In this document: one piece after another, positions 1 through 30,844 of the stretch
How the letters are laid out: each line of letters starts with the position of its first letter
How positions within the stretch are numbered: the first letter of the stretch is position 1
Virus record (IMG/VR): IMGVR_UViG_3300025362_000477
Length of the DNA stretch: 64,000 nt
Strand: one strand, 5' to 3'
From: a virus
Taxonomy: Duplodnaviria > Caudoviricetes
Notes under the pieces: generated by a model
The model's input: only the letters and a program-made list of their open reading frames with translations
What the model was told of the DNA's origin: nothing
Database searches by the model: none
Translations under genes and position numbers: made by a program

Positions 1-814
1 TTAATAACTTAATTGGAGATTTTGGGGAAAGTCCTAAAGCTATCCAATTAGCGCCATTCATCTGACAATCAGATTCAATCTTAATTTTCAATTTATTAGA
101 ATCTAATATCTCCCCAACACCAAGAACACAATCACTAGCAGCCCATAAATCATTATTAAATGCGCGTAACCCATCCACTATCAACCCACTCGCGAACATA
201 GAAGCGTTACCATGCATCCTAACCATTTCGTATGGAGTATATACCGCAGTGAAGGGTGCCTGTGGGTAATCCTTATCACCCGATACTGGAAGAAATGATA
301 TACCAGCAAACCACATTCTATTCCGATATACGAACTTTTCTACATCATCCCATTCATCGGGTCGAACATGGATAGTATTAGAAACATTATGTTTCAACCA
401 AGGACGATTTAATGAAGTATATCGGGTTCCGGCTTCTACCCAATTTTGTTGGGTAAGCCTAACATTTTCGAGTAATTCTAATGCACCTACAGTATTTTTT
501 GTTTTTGCCCCATCAGGAACTTCACATAAGAAAGTAATAATTTTATCAGTATCAGACCATACTGATTGTTCAACTGCAGACGGATTAAATGTTTCAAAAT
601 ATTGCAGTGGAGTTTCTATCTTATTCGATTGAACTCTTCTAAAATATCTCTTAGCATGATGAGGATGAATTCCAGACGCTGTTCCTAAAATACAACTTGT
701 TGTATTATGAGTCACTGTTCGATTAGATAATTGATATGTATGTGAACCGCCGACCTCAATGTCTACAGTCATTTGTTTCTTCTTATTCAATAATGGTTTT
801 AATATAATTTTCAT
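1..814 (-). CDS. nrdJ: Class II ribonucleotide reductase C-terminal half preceded by a 37-aa split-intein C-fragment (runs off the window edge)
   Basis: Hand-translated; absent from the ORF track. ATG at 814 after GGGGG SD: MKIILKPLLNKKKQMTVDIEVGGSHTYQLSNRTVTHN|TTSCILGTASGIHPHHAKRYFRRVQ...HNVSNTIHV...GISFLP. No stop seen in the segments translated, including the window edge. Confidence 0.93.
   Translation of the reverse strand, partial: MKIILKPLLNKKKQMTVDIEVGGSHTYQLSNRTVTHNTTSCILGTASGIHPHHAKRYFRRVQSNKIETPLQYFETFNPSAVEQSVWSDTDKIITFLCEVPDGAKTKNTVGALELLENVRLTQQNWVEAGTRYTSLNRPWLKHNVSNTIHVRPDEWDDVEKFVYRNRMWFAGISFLPVSGDKDYPQAPFTAVYTPYEMVRMHGNASMFASGLIVDGLRAFNNDLWAASDCVLGVGEILDSNKLKIKIESDCQMNGANWIALGLSPKSPIKLL
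704..814 (-). other. Split intein C-fragment (IntC, 37 aa) of NrdJ
   Basis: Block F-like TVDIEV..SHTY, terminal His-Asn, +1 residue Thr. Confidence 0.92.
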
Positions 815-1853
815 AAAATCCCCCGTCATTTAAGTTATAAAATTCTTGTTCCCATATAATTAACACATTATATCCCAATTCTTTCAATGTATCAATTCTT
901 TTCTGATCAGATTTCCATATATCAGAAGCTGTCATTTTCATAGTGGGATGATAAGAATCAGAATTCCATTGAAGTGGATTACAATGCCAATAATCTCCAA
1001 AAAATTCAATTATTGTATTGTAATCATCTAAAAAAATATCAACAAAATAAGACAATATTCGTTTAGAATCAGTATATCTTATATGATATTCATCCAATAT
1101 TTTTAAAATTTCTTTCTCTGGTTTTGATTGGCTCCCTGATTTCCATATTTGAGATTTAACCATCTTTTCATATCTTTTAGTTCCCTCTTTTTCACCATAT
1201 TTATCAATAAAAAATACTAAATCATGAGTTGAATTTTTCTTCAATATCTCCGCAGCTTCTATTTCCGTATACCCCCGTTTGATCCAATACTGTTTATTGA
1301 AATAACTATTAGTTCTTAGTTTTGAAATATATTTTAGATATCTTTCACACCCTTTAACATCCCCGTATCGATCAACAAATGAATTTAATGTCTGGGTAGA
1401 TCTAAAAGAATGTTTTTTCTTAATATCTTTAATCTCTACATCATCGTATCCATTCAATCTCAATGATGCTTCACTAACTGATAATTTTTTATTTTTTTCT
1501 TTATATCTCAATAATCCATCATCTTTACCATATTTATCAACATACCATTGAAGAGTACCCCGCTTTTTATAATTTAACAATACTTTATTCCATTTTTTCA
1601 ATCCTATTTCATCGCCAAACTTTCGAATATAATAATCTTTATCAAAACCTTTCAATGGTAATATATCATCTAAAGTATAAGTAGGCGGTAAAAATTGAAG
1701 ATAAAACTCAAAACAAGATGATTTTGGATTTCTATCTGGAAAATTTTTTTGTTTGAATTCTCGCATAGATATCTGCAAATCACATAATTTTTTAAATTTA
1801 TCTAATTCCAATTCAAACTCAGTAATTTTGTTTTTTGCTAGGATTACCTTCAT
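783..1853 (-). CDS. Free-standing homing endonuclease-like protein (KYG repeats plus Vsr/PD-(D/E)XK-like C-terminus) between the nrdJ halves
   Basis: Repeated YxxKYGxxxG units; C-terminal SKPE...VDIF...IEFFGDYWH...GYNVLIIWE. Confidence 0.8.
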   Translation of the reverse strand: MKVILAKNKITEFELELDKFKKLCDLQISMREFKQKNFPDRNPKSSCFEFYLQFLPPTYTLDDILPLKGFDKDYYIRKFGDEIGLKKWNKVLLNYKKRGTLQWYVDKYGKDDGLLRYKEKNKKLSVSEASLRLNGYDDVEIKDIKKKHSFRSTQTLNSFVDRYGDVKGCERYLKYISKLRTNSYFNKQYWIKRGYTEIEAAEILKKNSTHDLVFFIDKYGEKEGTKRYEKMVKSQIWKSGSQSKPEKEILKILDEYHIRYTDSKRILSYFVDIFLDDYNTIIEFFGDYWHCNPLQWNSDSYHPTMKMTASDIWKSDQKRIDTLKELGYNVLIIWEQEFYNLNDGGFYENYIKTIIE

Positions 1854-1913
1854 AAATTAAACCTCTGTTAAATTAATATAATTATATACTTTTAATTTAA
1901 TTCATATCATAAA

Positions 1914-3644
1914 TCAAAAAGATACTATATCATCACCGACATCCAATTCATCAGCACGCTTCCATAATCCATTAGTTAATTTAAACTTATGATTAGGAGT
2001 ACATGTATATATTGATCCATCTTCAAATGGAATATTGTACACATCAGATTCACCATTAACATATAATTTTGTAACCTTTTCCAATTCATCATTCTCATTA
2101 TAAATATATAATGGATATTTCAAATCTAACCATATATCTGATTGATTTTCATAATCCTTTAAATCATAACCCTGTTCATTAAATATGAGTTCTAAACTCT
2201 TATCACCATCAATAGTTCTAACTTCACTATCTATAGAAAGACATCCCGCTGGTTTAACGCAAGTTGCTCTAGCACATTTATTAATCCCAAGAATAGCAGA
2301 TATCCGCTCATTCTCAGATAATATTAATTTAGCTCCTTGTCTTTGTAATTTAGGATCAAATGCAATTTCAGGAACATCGGACATACCAGTCATTGATACA
2401 CCAAGTAAAGCTTCTTTCTCTGCAATAAGATGACTCACCTCACCAAGATAATCAAATTGAGTATATTTAGCTTGAATAGTGCCAAGAATAGCTCCTGCCT
2501 TACACGCTTCTAAAAATCGTTCTGGACTAGTAGCTTTTTTAAGATTAATTTCACATAAGTTACAAAATTGCCATCCAGATAGAATATCATTATTACCCTG
2601 AATTCTAATTTCATCAGCAAATTTCACTCTAAGTTCATCTGTCAAATCAAGTTTAGCAAACATACCAATTTCAACACATGGATTATATAAAGCATCAACA
2701 TTATCAGCCCACACAAATCCAGGTTCACCAAATTCTTTAACTCTATGCATCAATTTTGAAAATGTTTCTCTATCAGTACCATTTCTAATTAGAACAGCTG
2801 AATTATTAGATCTAGCTCTATGTTTAAATTCTTTTCTCCATGATCCAGTCTTTGAATCTGCCATTTCATCATCTTCTGGTGAGAATAAACAAATGGTTGC
2901 ACTACGTCTAATACCTCCTGATAATACTGCTTCTGAAGAATGCATTATAATATCATAAGCATTAATTGGCTTCAGTTTATCTTGATGTTTAGAACATATA
3001 TCCATTAAATGAGCAATAGCATCTAAAGATTCATGCAATTTATCTGGACCCGGAGCCTTAGCCCCTGACGATAACGGTGAACCTTTTGGTCTAATTTCAC
3101 TATAATCAAAATTAACTTTTTTACCAAAATATTCTGGAAATGGAGAATTTGCATCAACAAAATAAGATGAAAGTAAAACCCCAAGAGCATCAGCCCATCC
3201 TTCGATAGTGTCAGGAATAGTATATGTTATTTCATCTTCTTGATTGATTGACCTAATACCCGGAAGTTTATTTACATGACAGTATTGTACTGAAAATCCT
3301 ACTCCACAACCACATAAAAGTAACCACATTGATTCTTGAAAGAATCTAGGACGATCACAATATGAAACAGTACAATTATATAACCTAGCATTCTTTTTCA
3401 AAATAGGATCACCACCAAATTGAAGTGCTCGTTGAGAACCAAGTACTCTTTTTTGCATAACCATTTTTTTAGCAAATGCAAAATCATCTTTAATATTATG
3501 AATCATATCAGAACCAAGATACTCTTCATGCATATTAAATACTCTATCTACTTGTTCTTGCCAAGTTTCACGTCGATGTAATTCTGGACAATATCTCGCA
3601 TATCGAGCAAATCGAGTATATTCCTGTAAAGCTGTAATAGACAT
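1914..3644 (-). CDS. nrdJ: Class II ribonucleotide reductase N-terminal half fused to a split-intein N-fragment
   Basis: YNCT, GCGVGFS, SGGIRRSA, NPCVEI, FCNLCEIN motifs; ...VKPAG| then CLSIDSEV...CTPNHKF...ADELDVGD. Confidence 0.95.
   Translation of the reverse strand: MSITALQEYTRFARYARYCPELHRRETWQEQVDRVFNMHEEYLGSDMIHNIKDDFAFAKKMVMQKRVLGSQRALQFGGDPILKKNARLYNCTVSYCDRPRFFQESMWLLLCGCGVGFSVQYCHVNKLPGIRSINQEDEITYTIPDTIEGWADALGVLLSSYFVDANSPFPEYFGKKVNFDYSEIRPKGSPLSSGAKAPGPDKLHESLDAIAHLMDICSKHQDKLKPINAYDIIMHSSEAVLSGGIRRSATICLFSPEDDEMADSKTGSWRKEFKHRARSNNSAVLIRNGTDRETFSKLMHRVKEFGEPGFVWADNVDALYNPCVEIGMFAKLDLTDELRVKFADEIRIQGNNDILSGWQFCNLCEINLKKATSPERFLEACKAGAILGTIQAKYTQFDYLGEVSHLIAEKEALLGVSMTGMSDVPEIAFDPKLQRQGAKLILSENERISAILGINKCARATCVKPAGCLSIDSEVRTIDGDKSLELIFNEQGYDLKDYENQSDIWLDLKYPLYIYNENDELEKVTKLYVNGESDVYNIPFEDGSIYTCTPNHKFKLTNGLWKRADELDVGDDIVSF
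1917..2243 (-). other. Split intein N-fragment (IntN, 109 aa) of NrdJ
   Basis: Starts CLSIDSEV (block A), has TPNH (block B TxxH), ends ADELDVGD then stop. Confidence 0.92.
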
Positions 3645-24095: not shown

Positions 24096-24257
24096 ATGAA
24101 AAATAATCAAATAACTATTGATATTAATCCAGACATTCGATATGCAGCTAAATTATTAGCTAAAAAATTTGATGTATCTTTAAAATATATTATTCGTATA
24201 GCATTAATTGATATTTTGAAAAAACATAATTGTGATATTCCCGTGGAAGAATTATGA
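24096..24257 (+). CDS. Ribbon-helix-helix-like small protein (53 aa, not in the ORF track)
   Basis: AAGGA SD; MKNNQITTIDINPDIRYAAKLLAKKFDVSLKYIIRIALIDILKK; TGA overlaps the next ATG. Confidence 0.6.
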   Translation: MKNNQITIDINPDIRYAAKLLAKKFDVSLKYIIRIALIDILKKHNCDIPVEEL

Positions 24258-25084
24258 AATTATGTGAATGCGGTTGTGGTAAAGAAGTTAATTCCAAATC
24301 TGCTCGATTTATATCTGGACATAATATTAAAAAAGGACATAAATGGAAACCAAGAACTGATGAACATGCTAAAAAAATTATAAATACTAGAGTTGAAAAT
24401 AAAAGATTATTTGATTTAAATATTCCGTTTTCATTATGTAAATGTGGTTGTGGGAAACGAGTTTCAAAAAGAACTAATGTTTATATTGAAGGTCATCATC
24501 CTAGAATCGCAGGGTTTAAAGATCATAAACATAGTCAAAAAACTAAAGACTTATTTTCAAAAATTTATAAAAGCCAAGAATTTAAAGATAAAGTATTTAA
24601 AACTATGATTGATCGTTATGGAGTTAAACATGCTTTTCAAAATCCAAAATTTATTAAAAAAGCTAATAAGACTTATTTTGAAAAAACAGGATATCATAAT
24701 CCATCAAAAAATCCTTTAGAGATCGCAAAAGCTTTAAAGACTAGAAGAAAAACTAATTTAGAACGAGGTATTTGGATACCAGATGATCAATTACCTATGT
24801 TTCAACTTTACTATAGAAGAGTGTGGCATTATACCAATATAGCAGCGAAGTTAAAATATGATGATGAAAAATTATCAAAAAGAAAACTATGTGGTGTTAA
24901 AAATGGTTTACAATTAGATCATAAGTTTTCTATTCGAAAAGGATATGAAAATAATATTTTACCGCATATAATAGGTAGTCAATACAATATCAATTTAATT
25001 TCATGGGAAGATAATAGATTAAAAAATATCAGTTGTTCTATAACAAAAGAAGAACTTTTTGAACACGTTAACAAGGAAAACTAA
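24254..25084 (+). CDS. HNH-type homing endonuclease with CxCGCG repeats
   Basis: Two CxCGCG motifs; C-terminal QLDHK...NINL...DNRLK. Confidence 0.7.
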   Translation: MKLCECGCGKEVNSKSARFISGHNIKKGHKWKPRTDEHAKKIINTRVENKRLFDLNIPFSLCKCGCGKRVSKRTNVYIEGHHPRIAGFKDHKHSQKTKDLFSKIYKSQEFKDKVFKTMIDRYGVKHAFQNPKFIKKANKTYFEKTGYHNPSKNPLEIAKALKTRRKTNLERGIWIPDDQLPMFQLYYRRVWHYTNIAAKLKYDDEKLSKRKLCGVKNGLQLDHKFSIRKGYENNILPHIIGSQYNINLISWEDNRLKNISCSITKEELFEHVNKEN

Positions 25085-26902: not shown

Positions 26903-27508
26903 ATGAAAGATTTTATAGTATTGGATACTGAAACCAAAAAACATGCTGATCAGATTCAGGGTGGATGGGATAATATTGAAAAGATGGAACTTGCAACTGA
27001 AGTTACATATTCATCTCAATTAGATCGATATGTTTTTTGGAAACCTTCTCAAAAAAAAGAATTATGCAAATATTTACATGATCAATTAGTGGTTACTTTT
27101 AATGGGATGATGTTTGATACTAAACTATTGTTAGGTAATGATAGAATTCTTCAAGATAATGGAGTGACTGAAAATGATAAATATAGATGGTATAATGCTG
27201 ATATTTACGTTGAGATTTGGCGTCACATTTTGAACATGGATCGGTCCAATTATAATATGATACTCAAAAAAATAGGTGAGCAGAAATTCCCTAGAAACGT
27301 ATTCAATTTAGAATCAGTTGCTAGCGCTACTCTAGGAATACCAAGAACTGGTAAAGGGGACCAAGCACCCGATCTCTTTCAGCAAGGAAAGTTGTTAGAG
27401 TTATTTCAATTTAATTTACAAGATGTGAGAATGATTAAATCATTGTATCAGTTTATACAAAAGAGACAATATATCATTTCTGGTAGTTTCGATGTTGTGT
27501 CTTTTTAA
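26903..27508 (+). CDS. RNase H-like (DEDD-type) exonuclease
   Basis: VLDTET, TFNGMMFD, NLQDV. Confidence 0.7.
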   Translation: MKDFIVLDTETKKHADQIQGGWDNIEKMELATEVTYSSQLDRYVFWKPSQKKELCKYLHDQLVVTFNGMMFDTKLLLGNDRILQDNGVTENDKYRWYNADIYVEIWRHILNMDRSNYNMILKKIGEQKFPRNVFNLESVASATLGIPRTGKGDQAPDLFQQGKLLELFQFNLQDVRMIKSLYQFIQKRQYIISGSFDVVSF

Positions 27509-27555
27509 TAGGATACGTTTTCTTACTTAAAGGAATAAAATTTAAAGGAGTTAAT

Positions 27556-27771
27556 ATGTTTGAAAGTGGAGATAATATGTTAGATCAATTATGGGTTGAA
27601 AAATTTAGACCTAGAACAATTGATGATGTCGTATTGAATGCTGATCAAAAGGAATTTGTTGAAAGGTGTTTAGCGAAGCAGGAAATACCTCACATGGCGT
27701 TTTTTGGACCACCTGGATCCGGGAAATGCCATGCAGGTGATGAAACGATTACAATATATGTAGAAGATTAA
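27556..27771 (+). CDS. Clamp-loader (RFC/gp44-like) N-terminal fragment plus a 14-aa split-intein N-fragment
   Basis: LWVEKFRPRTIDDV...FFGPPGSGK|CHAGDETITIYVED*. Confidence 0.93.
   Translation: MFESGDNMLDQLWVEKFRPRTIDDVVLNADQKEFVERCLAKQEIPHMAFFGPPGSGKCHAGDETITIYVED
27727..27768 (+). other. Ultra-short split intein N-fragment (14 aa)
   Basis: Block A only (C-H-A-G-D-E-T-I), immediately after the Walker A Lys. Confidence 0.88.
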
Positions 27772-27815
27772 AATAATTCCATATCCAGCATGAATAAATA
27801 TAAAGGATTGCTAAT

Positions 27816-29105
27816 ATGAAATGTAAAATTTGTTCAAAAGAATATGCGAAATTATCATCATTCATTCAGCATATTATTAAAGGTCATAATATATTATTTT
27901 ATGATTATTGTTTAGAATATGACGATAGTTTAATTAGATGTCAATATTGTAAAAATATAGTCGATCGTGGATGTTCTTATTCATTCTGTGGTAGTAAACA
28001 TTGTAGATCATTTAAAATGCGATTAAGTAGGTACCCATCAGTTAATGATATTTTTAATATCTATGATCCGCTATATTGGATTTCTTTCTATGATAATGAT
28101 ATCATTAAAACCAATGAAAAATTATCATATTTAAAAAATTTTGATGTGTTTTTGAAATCTGACCAATATTTAAAATTGTTTAAAAGTGAAAATTTAGAAT
28201 GTGATTTCTTTCAATTTATTGATAGAATTAAAGATGGGTTAATAAATATTGAAGATTTAAAAAAATATAAAAATATGAATTCTATTGGACGATATAACGT
28301 TTTGGGTTTTAGTGAAGATGTTTTTAAAATTTTAAACCCGTATTTTACCACTAATAAAGAATCATATATTGATCGACATGGAAAAAATAAATGGGAACAA
28401 TATTCCAGTAAATTAGGTAGTACTCAAGTAATATCTTGTTGGCAAACTAAATACTGGATAAATAAAGGTTATTCATATGAAGATGCAAAAAAATTAATTT
28501 CAAAAAATGCAAGTAGAGATATTAATTATTTTATAAATAAATATGGAAAAGAAAAAGGAAAACAGTCATATCAAAATATGATCGAAAAAAGAAAATTTTC
28601 TTTTAGTTTAGAGGGTTATTGTAAAAAATATGGTTCAGATGGATTTAAAAAATACCATGAATGTATTAAAAAGAAGACTTCATGGGTTCCAAATATACAA
28701 AGTAAAGTATCATTAGATTGTATTTCTGAGTTATATACATTATTACCCAATAATATAAAATGCATATATGAAGAACCAATTGAATTTTACGTGTGTGATT
28801 TTTATTTTCCAGAATTGAAATGCGTTATAGAATTTTATGGTGATTACTGGCATCAAAATCCATTGATATCTAATATCGGAGATCGATATCATATTGAAAA
28901 ATGTCATGATAATCATAAAAGACGATCTGAATGTTTATTGAATTCAGGTCGAGTTGATAAAATTATCATTGTGTGGGAATTAGCATATACTAAATCTAAA
29001 ACTGAATGTTTATTAAATATATTAAAATGTTTTAAATTACACCACAAATATAATGAATTAAATTTTCAAAATGGGAATATATTATATAATAAGGAGTTAA
29101 TATAA
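27816..29105 (+). CDS. Free-standing homing endonuclease-like protein between the clamp-loader halves
   Basis: YWINKGY...YFINKYGKEKG; VIEFYGDYWH; homologous to 783..1853. Confidence 0.8.
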   Translation: MKCKICSKEYAKLSSFIQHIIKGHNILFYDYCLEYDDSLIRCQYCKNIVDRGCSYSFCGSKHCRSFKMRLSRYPSVNDIFNIYDPLYWISFYDNDIIKTNEKLSYLKNFDVFLKSDQYLKLFKSENLECDFFQFIDRIKDGLINIEDLKKYKNMNSIGRYNVLGFSEDVFKILNPYFTTNKESYIDRHGKNKWEQYSSKLGSTQVISCWQTKYWINKGYSYEDAKKLISKNASRDINYFINKYGKEKGKQSYQNMIEKRKFSFSLEGYCKKYGSDGFKKYHECIKKKTSWVPNIQSKVSLDCISELYTLLPNNIKCIYEEPIEFYVCDFYFPELKCVIEFYGDYWHQNPLISNIGDRYHIEKCHDNHKRRSECLLNSGRVDKIIIVWELAYTKSKTECLLNILKCFKLHHKYNELNFQNGNILYNKELI

Positions 29106-29506
29106 TGAAAAAAATAACAATTAATTTTAAAGATTTGTTTGATATCTATTCAATATCAGATAAATCCAATGATGTTCATGAATTATCAAAAAAGATTTTT
29201 GTAAAAGATCCAAGTGGTAAATTGGTACCTGTTAGAGGTATCATTAAAAAAACCGATGTGGATATGTGTAAATTTACAACAGAAAATAATATATCTCGAA
29301 AAATGGCATATGGGCATTTACTAAAATGCACAACTGGTTTTAAACAATTAAAAGATATAGATAATAATGATGATATTTATATTTATAATAATCAATCTAC
29401 GAAGATTAAATCAATAGAACCGTGTAACGATATTGATGTTGCTTATGATATTTCTTTAGATGCACCCCATGAATATGTTACACCTGATAATTTAATTCAT
29501 CATAAT
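29105..29506 (+). other. Long split intein C-fragment (blocks B, F, G)
   Basis: MAYGHLL (variant block B), YDISL..H.Y, HHN, +1 Thr. Confidence 0.88.
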
Positions 29507-30325
29507 ACAACAATAGCCAGAATCATTGTTGATGCATTGATTCAAAATGATTCTGATGTGTTAGTAATGAATGGATCCGATAATACTGGTGTTGAATCTA
29601 TGCGAACAACAGTAGCTGGATTCTTAAAATCACCGCCATATCAGGCTAAATTGAAGATTGTATATATTGATGAATTTGATTACACAACTCAGAATGCTCA
29701 AGCGGTTTTGCGTAATATGATGGAAGCATATTCTTCAACGGGTAGATTTATAATAACCGGCAATTACTGGTCTAAGGTAATGGAACCAATTCAATCTCGA
29801 TTCACATTATATGAGATGAAGACCTTACCAAAGGAATTTGTAATTGAATATGCAAAGAATATTCTTACTAAAGAGAAAGTAGAATTTGATGAACAGTCTG
29901 TTGAATTAATCGTTACTAGTTTATTACCTGATGTGCGAAAAGTTGTAAATACTTTGCAAAAAAATACAATTAATAAGAAACTAAAGAAGATTGATGTAAA
30001 TACTATTATCAGTAATGAAAAGAAAATTAGTGGCTTGTTGGTTCAAATAGGTGAACAGATGGGTAGTGCTTCAGAAAAAGCAACTATTAATAGAAACATA
30101 CCTCAGATAACGGAGTTATTAAATACTGGATCAGAACCAGACTATCTCCATATCTATCAGACATTGTTTTTTCATCCAGAGTTACCAGCATGGGCTAAGA
30201 TTAAAGTAAATGAATATTCAAATAAGCATAATTCATGTGTAAATCCAGTTAGTCATTTCATGGCAATGGTATATGATGTAGTTCAATCTGGTATGACATT
30301 CTTTAATTTATTTGGCAAAAAATAA
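29105..30325 (+). CDS. Split-intein C-fragment (134 aa) fused to the clamp-loader C-terminal part
   Basis: ...AYDISLDAPHEYVTPDNLIHHN|TTIARII...IDEFD...AQAVLRN...IQSRF. Confidence 0.93.
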   Translation: MKKITINFKDLFDIYSISDKSNDVHELSKKIFVKDPSGKLVPVRGIIKKTDVDMCKFTTENNISRKMAYGHLLKCTTGFKQLKDIDNNDDIYIYNNQSTKIKSIEPCNDIDVAYDISLDAPHEYVTPDNLIHHNTTIARIIVDALIQNDSDVLVMNGSDNTGVESMRTTVAGFLKSPPYQAKLKIVYIDEFDYTTQNAQAVLRNMMEAYSSTGRFIITGNYWSKVMEPIQSRFTLYEMKTLPKEFVIEYAKNILTKEKVEFDEQSVELIVTSLLPDVRKVVNTLQKNTINKKLKKIDVNTIISNEKKISGLLVQIGEQMGSASEKATINRNIPQITELLNTGSEPDYLHIYQTLFFHPELPAWAKIKVNEYSNKHNSCVNPVSHFMAMVYDVVQSGMTFFNLFGKK

Positions 30326-30361
30326 AAAGGGGAGAGTGAATTAACACTCATCCCCTTTTTT
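30325..30361. terminator. Bidirectional terminator between convergent genes
   Basis: AAAAGGGGAGAGTG-AATTAA-CACTCATCCCCTTTTTT. Confidence 0.75.
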
Positions 30362-30367
30362 AAAATT

Positions 30368-30844
30368 CTAAGTGTTTATTTTTTTGGCCCATCCTTGGGC
30401 CGTTTTAATCCACCACTTAGAATTTGGAGGGCACCACCGTCTAGCAAAGGACACTAGTCCTTTACCTCGATATCTACTCTTGATAGTGCCCGCAGCCCAT
30501 TCAGCTTGTAGGCGGAGGGATTTTTTGAAATTCCCTGCATACCTCTTCGCTGGATGGTTTTTAGTACCATCACCGACACCAAACTGCATGCCATTAGATG
30601 GGAATGGCTTTCCATTCTTGTCATATCGGGTATGTTTTCCATACTCATTTATTCTAAGCATACCAGAATTTTCCATTCGACGGGTTATGAATAACAACTC
30701 CGTTTCGATTGGAGTTAATTCATACTGTCTCGCTACTTGCGAGATAATATTCACTTCCGATTGTGGGAAGTGGTTTAGATACTTTTCGTGACTTGCTTCA
30801 CATAACAATGTGAAACATATCATTCCGAGGATCATTATTTTCAT
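30368..30844 (-). CDS. Putative secreted lysozyme-like / lytic transglycosylase protein
   Basis: Signal-like N-terminus; helix ending in a catalytic-like Glu (RMENS), QFG, QAEWAAGTI, FARRWCP. Confidence 0.45.
   Translation of the reverse strand: MKIMILGMICFTLLCEASHEKYLNHFPQSEVNIISQVARQYELTPIETELLFITRRMENSGMLRINEYGKHTRYDKNGKPFPSNGMQFGVGDGTKNHPAKRYAGNFKKSLRLQAEWAAGTIKSRYRGKGLVSFARRWCPPNSKWWIKTAQGWAKKINT

Follow-up and report, generated by a model that had tools for sequence, protein, structure and literature searches.

[quoted passage not shown] Very probably, the locus is a fractured gene for a gp44/RFC-type clamp loader, whose class-1 intein sits in the Walker A motif at GPPGSGK/T (the slash marks the insertion point) and has been split by a free-standing Vsr/EDxHD-type endonuclease gene into an N-terminal piece of 14 residues (IntN) and a C-terminal piece of 134 residues (IntC).

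Organization of the locus

The locus is part of a 64-kb stretch of phage DNA, here called the window, that comprises the replication module of an approximately 221-kb contig. Its three ORFs lie on the same (+) strand, each in a different frame (Table 1). When the window sequence was re-read, all coordinates and residues given in the original prediction held, and so did the layout it had proposed, namely a clamp-loader gene that is fractured at a split intein and accompanied by a free-standing gene for an endonuclease.

Table 1. Features of the fractured clamp-loader locus (positions in the window)
Feature	Position	Strand	Basis and remarks
SD-like site AAGGAG	27545-27550	+	5 nt 5' of N-ORF start codon; read from the sequence, putative function
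N-ORF	27556-27771	+	57-aa N-extein, 14-aa IntN and stop
Clamp-loader N-extein, 57 aa, C-terminal Walker A GPPGSGK	27556-27726	+	PHROG 168, E 7.9e-14
IntN CHAGDETITIYVED, 14 residues, block A, Cys1	27727-27768	+	Sequence
IntN stop codon TAA	27769-27771	+	Sequence
44-nt spacer, IntN stop to endonuclease start	27772-27815	+	Sequence; AAAGGA ahead of ATG
Predicted free-standing homing-endonuclease gene, 429 aa	27816-29105	+	Vsr/EDxHD-type; profile and structure prediction
SD-like site AAGGAG	29091-29096	+	8 nt 5' of IntC start, within 3' end of endonuclease gene; sequence
C-ORF (IntC and C-extein)	29105-30325	+	134-aa IntC ending HHN, then 272-aa C-extein
IntC, 134 aa	29105-29506	+	HINT fold (AF2, Foldseek, VIA-align), family profile
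Clamp-loader C-extein, 272 aa, Thr+1 first (TTIARII)	29507-30325	+	PHROG 168, E 8.9e-36
C-extein stop codon	30323-30325	+	
Terminator-like hairpin, then T run	30329-30361	+	Directly 3' of C-extein stop; putative function

The three ORFs would be translated separately, each from its own SD-like site. For the IntC ORF, an independent start is suggested by the site that lies in the endonuclease gene's 3' end; of nine homologous loci compared, most likewise have a purine-rich SD-like site ahead of IntC. A search for an endonuclease-borne promoter gave no signal, with sigma-70-like sites no commoner in the locus than in shuffled sequences (22 versus 26 +/- 5.6). Among the sequencing runs that contain the stretch, none is registered as RNA. 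The 44-nt spacer matched no Rfam family. The hairpin behind the C-extein has a predicted RNA folding energy of -20.8 kcal/mol (z = -7.25 against shuffles). The same window contains a second fractured gene, which encodes a class II ribonucleotide reductase; this phage thus carries at least two.

The two exteins would together form a complete clamp loader

Residues 7-57 of the N-ORF correspond to positions 5-55 of the PHROG 168 (clamp loader) profile and residues 135-391 of the C-ORF to positions 56-306 (for E-values, see Table 1). Because the two alignments abut, exactly 14 + 134 residues are inserted between the adjacent profile positions 55 and 56, an arrangement that goes beyond chance. A homologous clamp loader that is free of an intein (locus L004) reads GPPGSGK/TTTARI, and the N-extein ends at the same lysine, while the C-extein aligns with residues 55-323 of this uninterrupted protein without gaps and with 47% identity. 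By profile and homologue alike, removal of the intein leaves an uninterrupted conserved host protein, and ligation of the exteins would restore GSGK-T as had been predicted. The C-extein retains a Walker B motif (YIDEFD) and an SRF (SRC-like) motif in the context QSRF, so that the joined parts are those of an AAA+ ATPase with Walker A, Walker B, an SRC-type arginine finger and matches to a clamp-loader profile. Pfam matches of the clamp-loader parts, to DNA_pol3_delta2 and Gp44_lid, are both weak. A blastn search of 50,697 phage records with the locus as query gave no match, and tblastn against phage records retrieved distant clamp loaders only, plus one unannotated 484-kb uncultured phage over the IntC part.

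IntC adopts an intein fold and carries the residues for splicing

IntC was recognized as an intein solely by a family profile and by structure prediction. A search with Pfam intein models had been suggested as a check; Pfam scans of all three ORFs found neither an intein family nor an endonuclease family. Likewise, a phmmer search of the PDB with the single IntC sequence yielded nothing meaningful and no intein, and the same was true for a contiguous relative. In contrast, the family profile (A1) matched solved inteins, with gp41-1 (E = 6.7e-9) and Npu DnaE (5e-8) ahead of CatC (3e-4) and VidaL (2.4e-3). The AF2 model of IntC has a pLDDT of 90.1; without exception, its top 50 Foldseek hits in the PDB are inteins or BIL domains (TM up to 0.75), and VIA-align superimposes it on solved inteins with Z-scores of 14-16 and an rmsd of about 2 A. 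The proposed HINT fold with blocks B, F and G is thus borne out. Residue 1 of the model falls on residue 11-15 of the Ssp DnaB, Npu DnaE, Pho RadA, Mtu RecA and gp41-1 inteins, and since the superposition begins there, what IntC lacks relative to solved inteins is just their first 10-14 residues. The split is therefore of the atypical S1 type, with block A as the sole content of IntN and an IntC that starts some 11-16 residues into the HINT fold.

The expected catalytic residues are present: block B reads AYGH (His71), block F YDISLD..PH (Asp115, His122) and block G HHN (His133, Asn134), while the nucleophile pair is made up of Cys1, directly behind GSGK in the N-ORF, and Thr+1, directly behind HHN in the C-ORF. 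Among 37 family members, His71, His132, His133 and Asn134 are invariant (37/37) and Asp115 and His122 are each found in all but one (36/37). Two features had originally been highlighted, a non-canonical block B and Thr at +1. As to the first, block B indeed departs from TxxH, but this is not a peculiarity of the present copy, since the position of the threonine, occupied by Ala68 here, is S, A, G or E across the 37 members and never T; the gp41-1 intein aligns with a serine at this position. As to the second, Thr is indeed present at +1 but simply follows from the insertion point, because the P-loop reads GK[T/S]; the +1 residue is T in 28 family members, S in eight and C in one.

IntN is short and the split is real

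Natural atypical IntN pieces published so far comprise 15-37 residues, and the 15-residue piece of PolB16 has been termed record-short (PMC13014065, PMC10189870). The description of the present N-fragment as one of the shortest agrees with this range; at 14 residues it is one residue below the shortest natural one that we found in the literature covered, which consisted of sources other than the primary VidaL papers. This length depends on the stop codon behind IntN, for which an assembly error had been named among the possible refutations. Three further runs (X2, X3, X4) yielded contigs with zero differences over the region around it (27628-27871), and the stop is therefore no such artefact. 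Moreover, four diverged metagenomic loci (L001, L003, L036, L038) with 64-82% nucleotide identity likewise have an IntN of 14 residues that is followed by a stop; in a sister locus IntN has 17 residues. The three-ORF layout is found in these four and in L035, with IntC identities to the window of 45-54% for L001 and L003. In yet another locus (L039) the two halves are only 26 nt apart and the intein is still split although an endonuclease gene is absent.

These observations also bear on the idea that the split is only apparent, i.e., that it stems from a sequencing or assembly error or that a group I intron, a frameshift or read-through eliminates or bypasses the DNA in between, so that the intein is made in one piece, which might contain a nested endonuclease. 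Homing-endonuclease genes of the same family do occur in group I introns as well (PMC3239194). However, apart from the identity among runs, the retention of the stop in diverged loci and the split without an endonuclease in L039, the three ORFs occupy three frames, and the non-coding flanks of the endonuclease ORF measure just 44 nt and -1 nt. We consider an apparent split extremely unlikely. Group I introns and RNA elements of other kinds were searched for and dismissed, as the interval 27300-30500 gave no Rfam match at E <= 1.

Somewhat less remote, yet still very improbable, is a decaying, non-functional clamp-loader gene that was broken by a mobile element and whose task is taken over by the host or by another gene beyond the window. 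The view is restricted to 64 kb of the approximately 221-kb contig, and a substitute could be encoded elsewhere, but there is no second clamp-loader copy in the 64-kb replication module, and both exteins are intact open frames that have kept Walker A, Walker B and the SRC-like motif. Retention of the three-ORF layout together with the stop after residue 14 in the four other loci, and of SD-like sites ahead of most IntC starts, likewise argues against decay.

The two intein pieces are predicted to associate and may splice in trans

Co-folding of the two fragments, which had been suggested as a check, placed the 14-mer on IntC. IntC and residues 30-71 of the N-ORF reached a score of 0.65, versus 0.35 for the best of three controls. 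This mark was attained by 58 out of 80 solved complexes and by 2 out of 110 mismatched pairs, which is a rough yardstick here as our own alignment was used; moreover, a pair may score well because it resembles a complex whose structure is already solved. In the co-fold, the interface with IntC is made up of N-ORF residues 59-71. The model thus suggests that the intein pieces associate.

In a trans-splicing mechanism, the acidic 14-mer (net charge -4) would supply the N-terminal strands that IntC lacks and complete the HINT fold by docking on the basic N-terminal part of IntC, whose first 50 residues carry a net charge of +5. An N-S acyl shift at Cys1 would produce a thioester that the hydroxyl group of Thr+1 could attack; cyclization of Asn134 and a subsequent O-N shift would then join Lys to Thr by a peptide bond, to yield a clamp loader of 329 residues with an intact Walker A motif.

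Alternatively, the intein halves could associate without splicing and the clamp loader would be a non-covalent two-chain protein, as is the case for the split NrdA of phage Aeh1. Non-covalent assembly of the products of an endonuclease-split phage gene is documented (PMC3045599), and the absence of Thr from block B would be compatible with a loss of splicing. On the other hand, Cys1, His71, Asp115, His122, His133, Asn134 and Thr+1 have all been kept, and His71, His132, His133 and Asn134 are strictly, and Asp115 and His122 almost strictly, conserved even among the 37 diverged members. A mere dimerization module would not need the residues for the chemistry, and their conservation therefore speaks against one. 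In addition, ATP binding would probably be prevented by 148 extra residues in the Walker A loop as long as these are not excised. We therefore regard association without splicing as improbable and favour protein trans-splicing.

The interposed gene encodes a putative homing endonuclease

The assignment of the 429-residue ORF as an endonuclease agrees with its C-terminal Vsr/EDxHD-type nuclease domain (about 28695-29102, motif EFYGDYWH). A profile of the protein (A3) matched E. coli Vsr with an E-value of 1.1e-3. The AF2 model of the last 150 residues (pLDDT 86) retrieved Vsr (1cw0, E = 8.5e-4) and I-Bth0305I (3r3p, probability 1.00, target-normalized TM 0.72) with Foldseek. Ten homologues share the residues D, E, G, D, H, R, W and E without exception; these include D49, E60, D64 and H67 in the numbering of the alignment (A4). 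The N-terminus gave a weak match to a zf-C2H2-like zinc finger (E = 0.024). Taken together, a Vsr-type fold is predicted and the protein is probably a Vsr/I-Bth0305I-like homing endonuclease. It would be expected to cut alleles that are free of the intein and thereby to spread the whole cassette; such an allele exists in L004. The insertion of this gene into the intein coding sequence just past block A accounts for the natural, atypical split of the intein at S1.

Comparison with known systems

Fractured genes were reported in 2009 by Dassa, London, Stoddard, Schueler-Furman and Pietrokovski (PMC2677866), with gp41-1, NrdJ-1, IMPDH-1 and an atypically split terminase locus as examples. They share with the window the order of three ORFs on one strand, a free-standing gene for a Vsr-like endonuclease between the halves, the phage or metagenomic setting, host enzymes of DNA metabolism and even the length of the spacer (27-51 nt versus 44 nt here). 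This kind of layout is thus already known and does not constitute a new principle. However, the clamp loader is absent from the hosts named there (gp41, IMPDH, DnaE, NrdA, NrdJ, ligase and terminase), and all but one of those inteins are canonically split with IntN pieces of 88-105 residues, compared with 14 residues in the window (PMC2677866).

In the position of the split, the closest parallels are VidaL (16-residue IntN, PDB 6vgv) and PolB16 OarG (15-residue IntN) (PMC10189870, PMC13014065), which, like the window intein, are divided right after the first strands (block A) and carry blocks B, F and G on IntC. The IntC model superimposes on VidaL with a Z-score of 14.1 and an rmsd of 2.1 A at 17% identity. 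The IntN of the window is one or two residues shorter, and the host gene is a different one, a phage clamp loader interrupted at the P-loop. Unlike PolB16, it possesses a Cys1 nucleophile, paired with Thr+1. Close kinship with VidaL was not found, as profile A1 ranked VidaL behind gp41-1 and DnaE and the single-sequence search of the PDB returned no intein. The window intein is therefore putatively VidaL-like in its mode of action but belongs to a separate sequence family.

Inteins in archaeal RFC small subunits occupy the P-loop insertion point 'a' (PMC4760082) and resemble the window intein in host (a clamp-loader AAA+ ATPase of the same superfamily), motif (Walker A) and class (Cys1, class 1), but they are contiguous, whereas the window intein is split, phage-borne and accompanied by a free-standing gene for a Vsr-like endonuclease. 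The Ssp DnaB M86 intein, artificially split at S1, has an 11-residue IntN (PDB 6frh, as cited by PMC13014065) and shows that an N-piece of such a size can support trans-splicing. The structural position of the split is the same, with residue 1 of the IntC model on residue 12 of the DnaB intein; in contrast to the natural split in the window, that of M86 was engineered, and the sequence family is a different one (15-18% identity).

A family of P-loop-inserted split inteins

The window intein is a member of a large family of atypically split inteins inserted in P-loops, which comprises 64 representative clusters at 50% identity. IntN pieces in the family range from 14 to 32 residues, those of the other clades from 17 to 32, and the exteins resemble clamp loaders, RecA/UvsX-like, RadA/Sms-like, DnaB/gp41-like and SNF2/UvsW-like ATPases or terminases. 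In contiguous relatives (P0016, P0033, P0036, P0042) an N-terminus of the type CxxG[DS]xKIxI[YWF] is fused to the same domain. A published description of such a family was not found in the literature. For the wider proposition that the window clade (five loci) represents a natural split intein that is functional and has the shortest IntN yet seen in nature (14 residues, with Cys1 and Thr+1), and that it is the tip of a large, undescribed, P-loop-targeting and atypically split family, we see the chances as evenly balanced.

Split inteins with an IntN short enough for chemical synthesis are sought after for protein semisynthesis and labelling, and the few natural ones published have 15-37 residues. 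The locus and its relatives add a natural IntN of 14 residues whose length has been kept by evolution, as well as a Cys1/Thr+1 pair in the context GK/T. The many diverged members of the family could be screened for speed and orthogonality and, if the above proposition is true, could supply new, possibly orthogonal, ligation tags of peptide size. For the phage itself, the clamp loader joins the replication genes that tolerate fracture.

Anatomy and insertion site

Re-reading of the sequence confirmed all coordinates, residues and lengths of the original prediction, which had described a clamp-loader gene fractured by a split intein with an N-terminal piece (IntN) of 14 residues. The three ORFs occupy different reading frames, and the only non-coding DNA around the middle ORF amounts to 44 nt after the N-ORF and -1 nt before the C-ORF, the ATG of which is overlapped by the middle-ORF stop. 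Residues 7-57 of the N-ORF correspond to positions 5-55 of the profile for PHROG 168 (clamp loader of DNA polymerase), and residues 135-391 of the C-ORF to positions 56-306. An uninterrupted homologue on the 322-kb IMG/VR phage contig L004 reads GPPGSGK/TTTARI; it shares 47% identity with the C-extein in a gapless alignment from L004 residue 55, and both contigs carry a B-family DNA polymerase and an exonuclease-like ORF upstream of the clamp loader. From the PHROG 168 and L004 alignments it follows that the insert in the clamp loader measures exactly 14+134 residues; taking it out would leave a 329-aa protein whose P-loop is intact.

Coordinates of the features discussed (window, unless another contig is named)
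Feature	Coordinates	Strand	Remarks
N-ORF	27556-27771		57 residues ending in Walker A GPPGSGK, then CHAGDETITIYVED; TAA at 27769-27771
Middle ORF, 429 aa	27816-29105	same as N- and C-ORF	
C-ORF, 406 aa	29105-30325		residues 1-134 end in HHN, then TTIARII
276-aa ORF	24254-25084	plus	between DNA polymerase and IMPDH/GMP-reductase-like gene
Second fractured gene	2-3644	minus	
Ribonucleotide-reductase-like ORF, 576 aa	3644-1914	minus	ends in CVKPAG, then canonical IntN (~105 aa) from CLSIDSEV
Vsr-like endonuclease ORF, 356 aa	1853-783	minus	IIEFFGDYWHCNP; homologous to endonuclease at 27816-29105
IntC ORF, open at window edge	829-2	minus	short IntC ending in THN, then TTSCILG
L004 clamp loader, 327 aa	3884-4867		
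L039 split locus	2-1173		

The stop at 27769 had been considered a possible assembly error, which is ruled out since contigs of three other salt-lake metagenome runs, from three further samples and studies, show zero differences across 27628-27871. An Rfam search of the region gave zero family matches, group I introns included, and an artefact, an intron or recoding is hardly credible as the origin of the arrangement. The runs containing 27400-29700 or part of it number 14, come from 14 different studies and all bear the label salt lake metagenome, which suggests that the phage recurs in such lakes. AceL and VidaL, earlier atypical split inteins, are named after saline Antarctic lakes.

The C-terminal piece as an intein domain

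Pfam and single-sequence PDB searches did not detect the intein in IntC, the C-terminal piece. When 1.84 billion representatives were searched exhaustively with HMMER, 64 related clusters were retrieved, in most of which the domain begins at protein residue 1. A profile built from 37 of these matches the solved inteins gp41-1 (6.7e-9), Npu DnaE (5e-8), CatC (3e-4) and VidaL (2.4e-3), as well as Spl DnaX, Pho RadA and Ssp DnaB. The anticipated Hint fold was recovered in the AlphaFold2 model of IntC (pLDDT 90.1), for which inteins and bacterial intein-like domains make up all of the 50 best PDB matches given by Foldseek. In VIA-align comparisons with solved inteins (Z 14-16, rmsd about 2 Å), the first model residue falls on residue 11-15 in each case (Ssp DnaB 12, Npu DnaE 11, Pho RadA 14, Mtu RecA 12, gp41-1 11), so the stretch missing from IntC (10-14 residues) is about as long as the piece that the N-ORF provides. 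Judged by the models, the foreign part is an intein without its first strands, split at the S1 position after block A; VidaL and PolB16 are split there too, as is the engineered M86 with its 11-aa fragment (PMC13014065).

Cys1, block B His71, block F Asp115 and His122, block G His133-Asn134 and Thr+1 are all present. His71, His132, His133 and Asn134 are invariant in the 37-member alignment, and Asp115 and His122 are kept in 36 members. The block B sequence AYGH, lacking Thr, is indeed non-canonical; it is the family norm and no local oddity, because this position is never T (S 17, A 12, G 7, E 1). The +1 residue (T 28, S 8, C 1) is as expected for GK[T/S].

Fit of the two pieces

Co-folding of IntC, with its own alignment, and N-ORF residues 30-71 scored 0.65, compared with 0.35 for the best of three controls, and the predicted confident interface on the N-ORF partner comprises residues 59-71, i.e., IntN itself, in line with the expected pairing. 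Of 80 solved complexes, 58 reach the mark applied, as do 2 of 110 mismatched pairs; these counts are rough owing to the user-made alignment, and known complex types may pass from the tool's memory. IntN carries a net charge of -4 (-4 to -6 across the clade), and IntC is basic over residues 1-50 (+5; +4 to +7 among its nearest homologues). At the level of sequence, this fits the charge-based pairing that has been reported for split inteins (PMC2677866). Assembly of the pieces non-covalently, without splicing, is improbable beside the set of catalytic residues.

Conservation and family range

Four metagenomic loci of the same layout also have a 14-aa IntN (L001 CHSGDEYIEIFIDE, L003 CHDGEELIDVYIED, L036 CHSGDEYIDIYIDE, L038 CHDGDEYIEIYIED), with only 64-82% nucleotide identity to the window over the 45 nt; IntC identity is 54% for L001 and 45% for L003. 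Purine-rich SD-like tracts precede most IntC starts at homologous loci. That the window's clamp-loader gene is dead is very improbable. IntN comprises 17 aa in the sister locus L035, 29-32 aa in other clamp loaders, 29-30 aa in RadA/Sms-like and 24-28 aa in UvsX/RecA-like genes, and four contiguous relatives (P0016, P0033, P0036, P0042) have short N-terminal strands fused to the domain. At locus L039, 26 nt separate the ORF carrying a 24-aa IntN from the IntC ORF, and the gap contains no endonuclease gene. The arrangement resembles that of a fractured gene after endonuclease loss, as in gp41-7 of Dassa et al.

Six relatives (clamp-loader P0008, P0011, P0019, P0020; RecA-like P0013, P0036) start with a family IntC and end in an apparent second, canonical IntN, located in the clamp-loader proteins directly after Walker B (DE/CL); by sequence, two separate fractures seem to be present in each host gene. 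YIDEFD is intact in the window's clamp-loader gene.

Endonuclease genes

The middle ORF contains EFYGDYWH in its C-terminal part, a five-sequence profile matches E. coli Vsr (E 1.1e-3), and D, E, G, D, H, R, W and E are invariant in ten homologues. The AF2 model covering its last 150 residues (pLDDT 86) resembles two solved structures: Vsr, 1cw0 (E 8.5e-4), and the catalytic domain of I-Bth0305I, 3r3p (probability 1.00, target-normalised TM 0.72). On this modelled fold, the gene belongs to the Vsr-like/EDxHD homing endonucleases, first described in fractured genes (PMC2677866; PMC3239194). The N-terminus shows a weak C2H2 zinc-finger match. Elsewhere in the window, the 276-aa ORF weakly matches phrog_3339 (homing endonuclease, E 1.6e-6) and may be another free-standing endonuclease of the replication module. 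The second fractured gene is listed in the table.

Mechanism and significance

Real trans-splicing of the window's intein pieces is highly probable. The analysis itself establishes the anatomy with its exact junction, the two modelled folds, the set of catalytic residues, the conserved 14-aa length and a predicted complex. The three ORFs would be translated separately and the 14-mer would dock on IntC, driven electrostatically; class-1 splicing would proceed via a Cys1 thioester, Thr+1 attack, Asn134 cyclisation and an O-N shift, releasing the 329-aa clamp loader. The cassette would home into intein-free alleles.

Fractured genes were already recognised in 2009, among them an atypically split terminase locus (PMC2677866); the host enzymes named there do not include a clamp loader, unlike here. 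In archaeal RFC-S, inteins at the P-loop have been described (PMC4760082). Natural atypically split inteins have reported IntN pieces of 15-37 aa, including VidaL (16 aa) and PolB16 OarG (15 aa), termed record-short (PMC10189870; PMC13014065). The window's IntN, predicted to be one of the shortest, indeed falls one residue below that record. As all three features are known, the locus is an instance of an established type. New are the 14-aa length, the clamp-loader host gene and a sequence family with no more than distant kinship to VidaL; the open literature searched yielded no description of this family. The finding is real, has good support and may be of use in protein engineering, but is conceptually ordinary.
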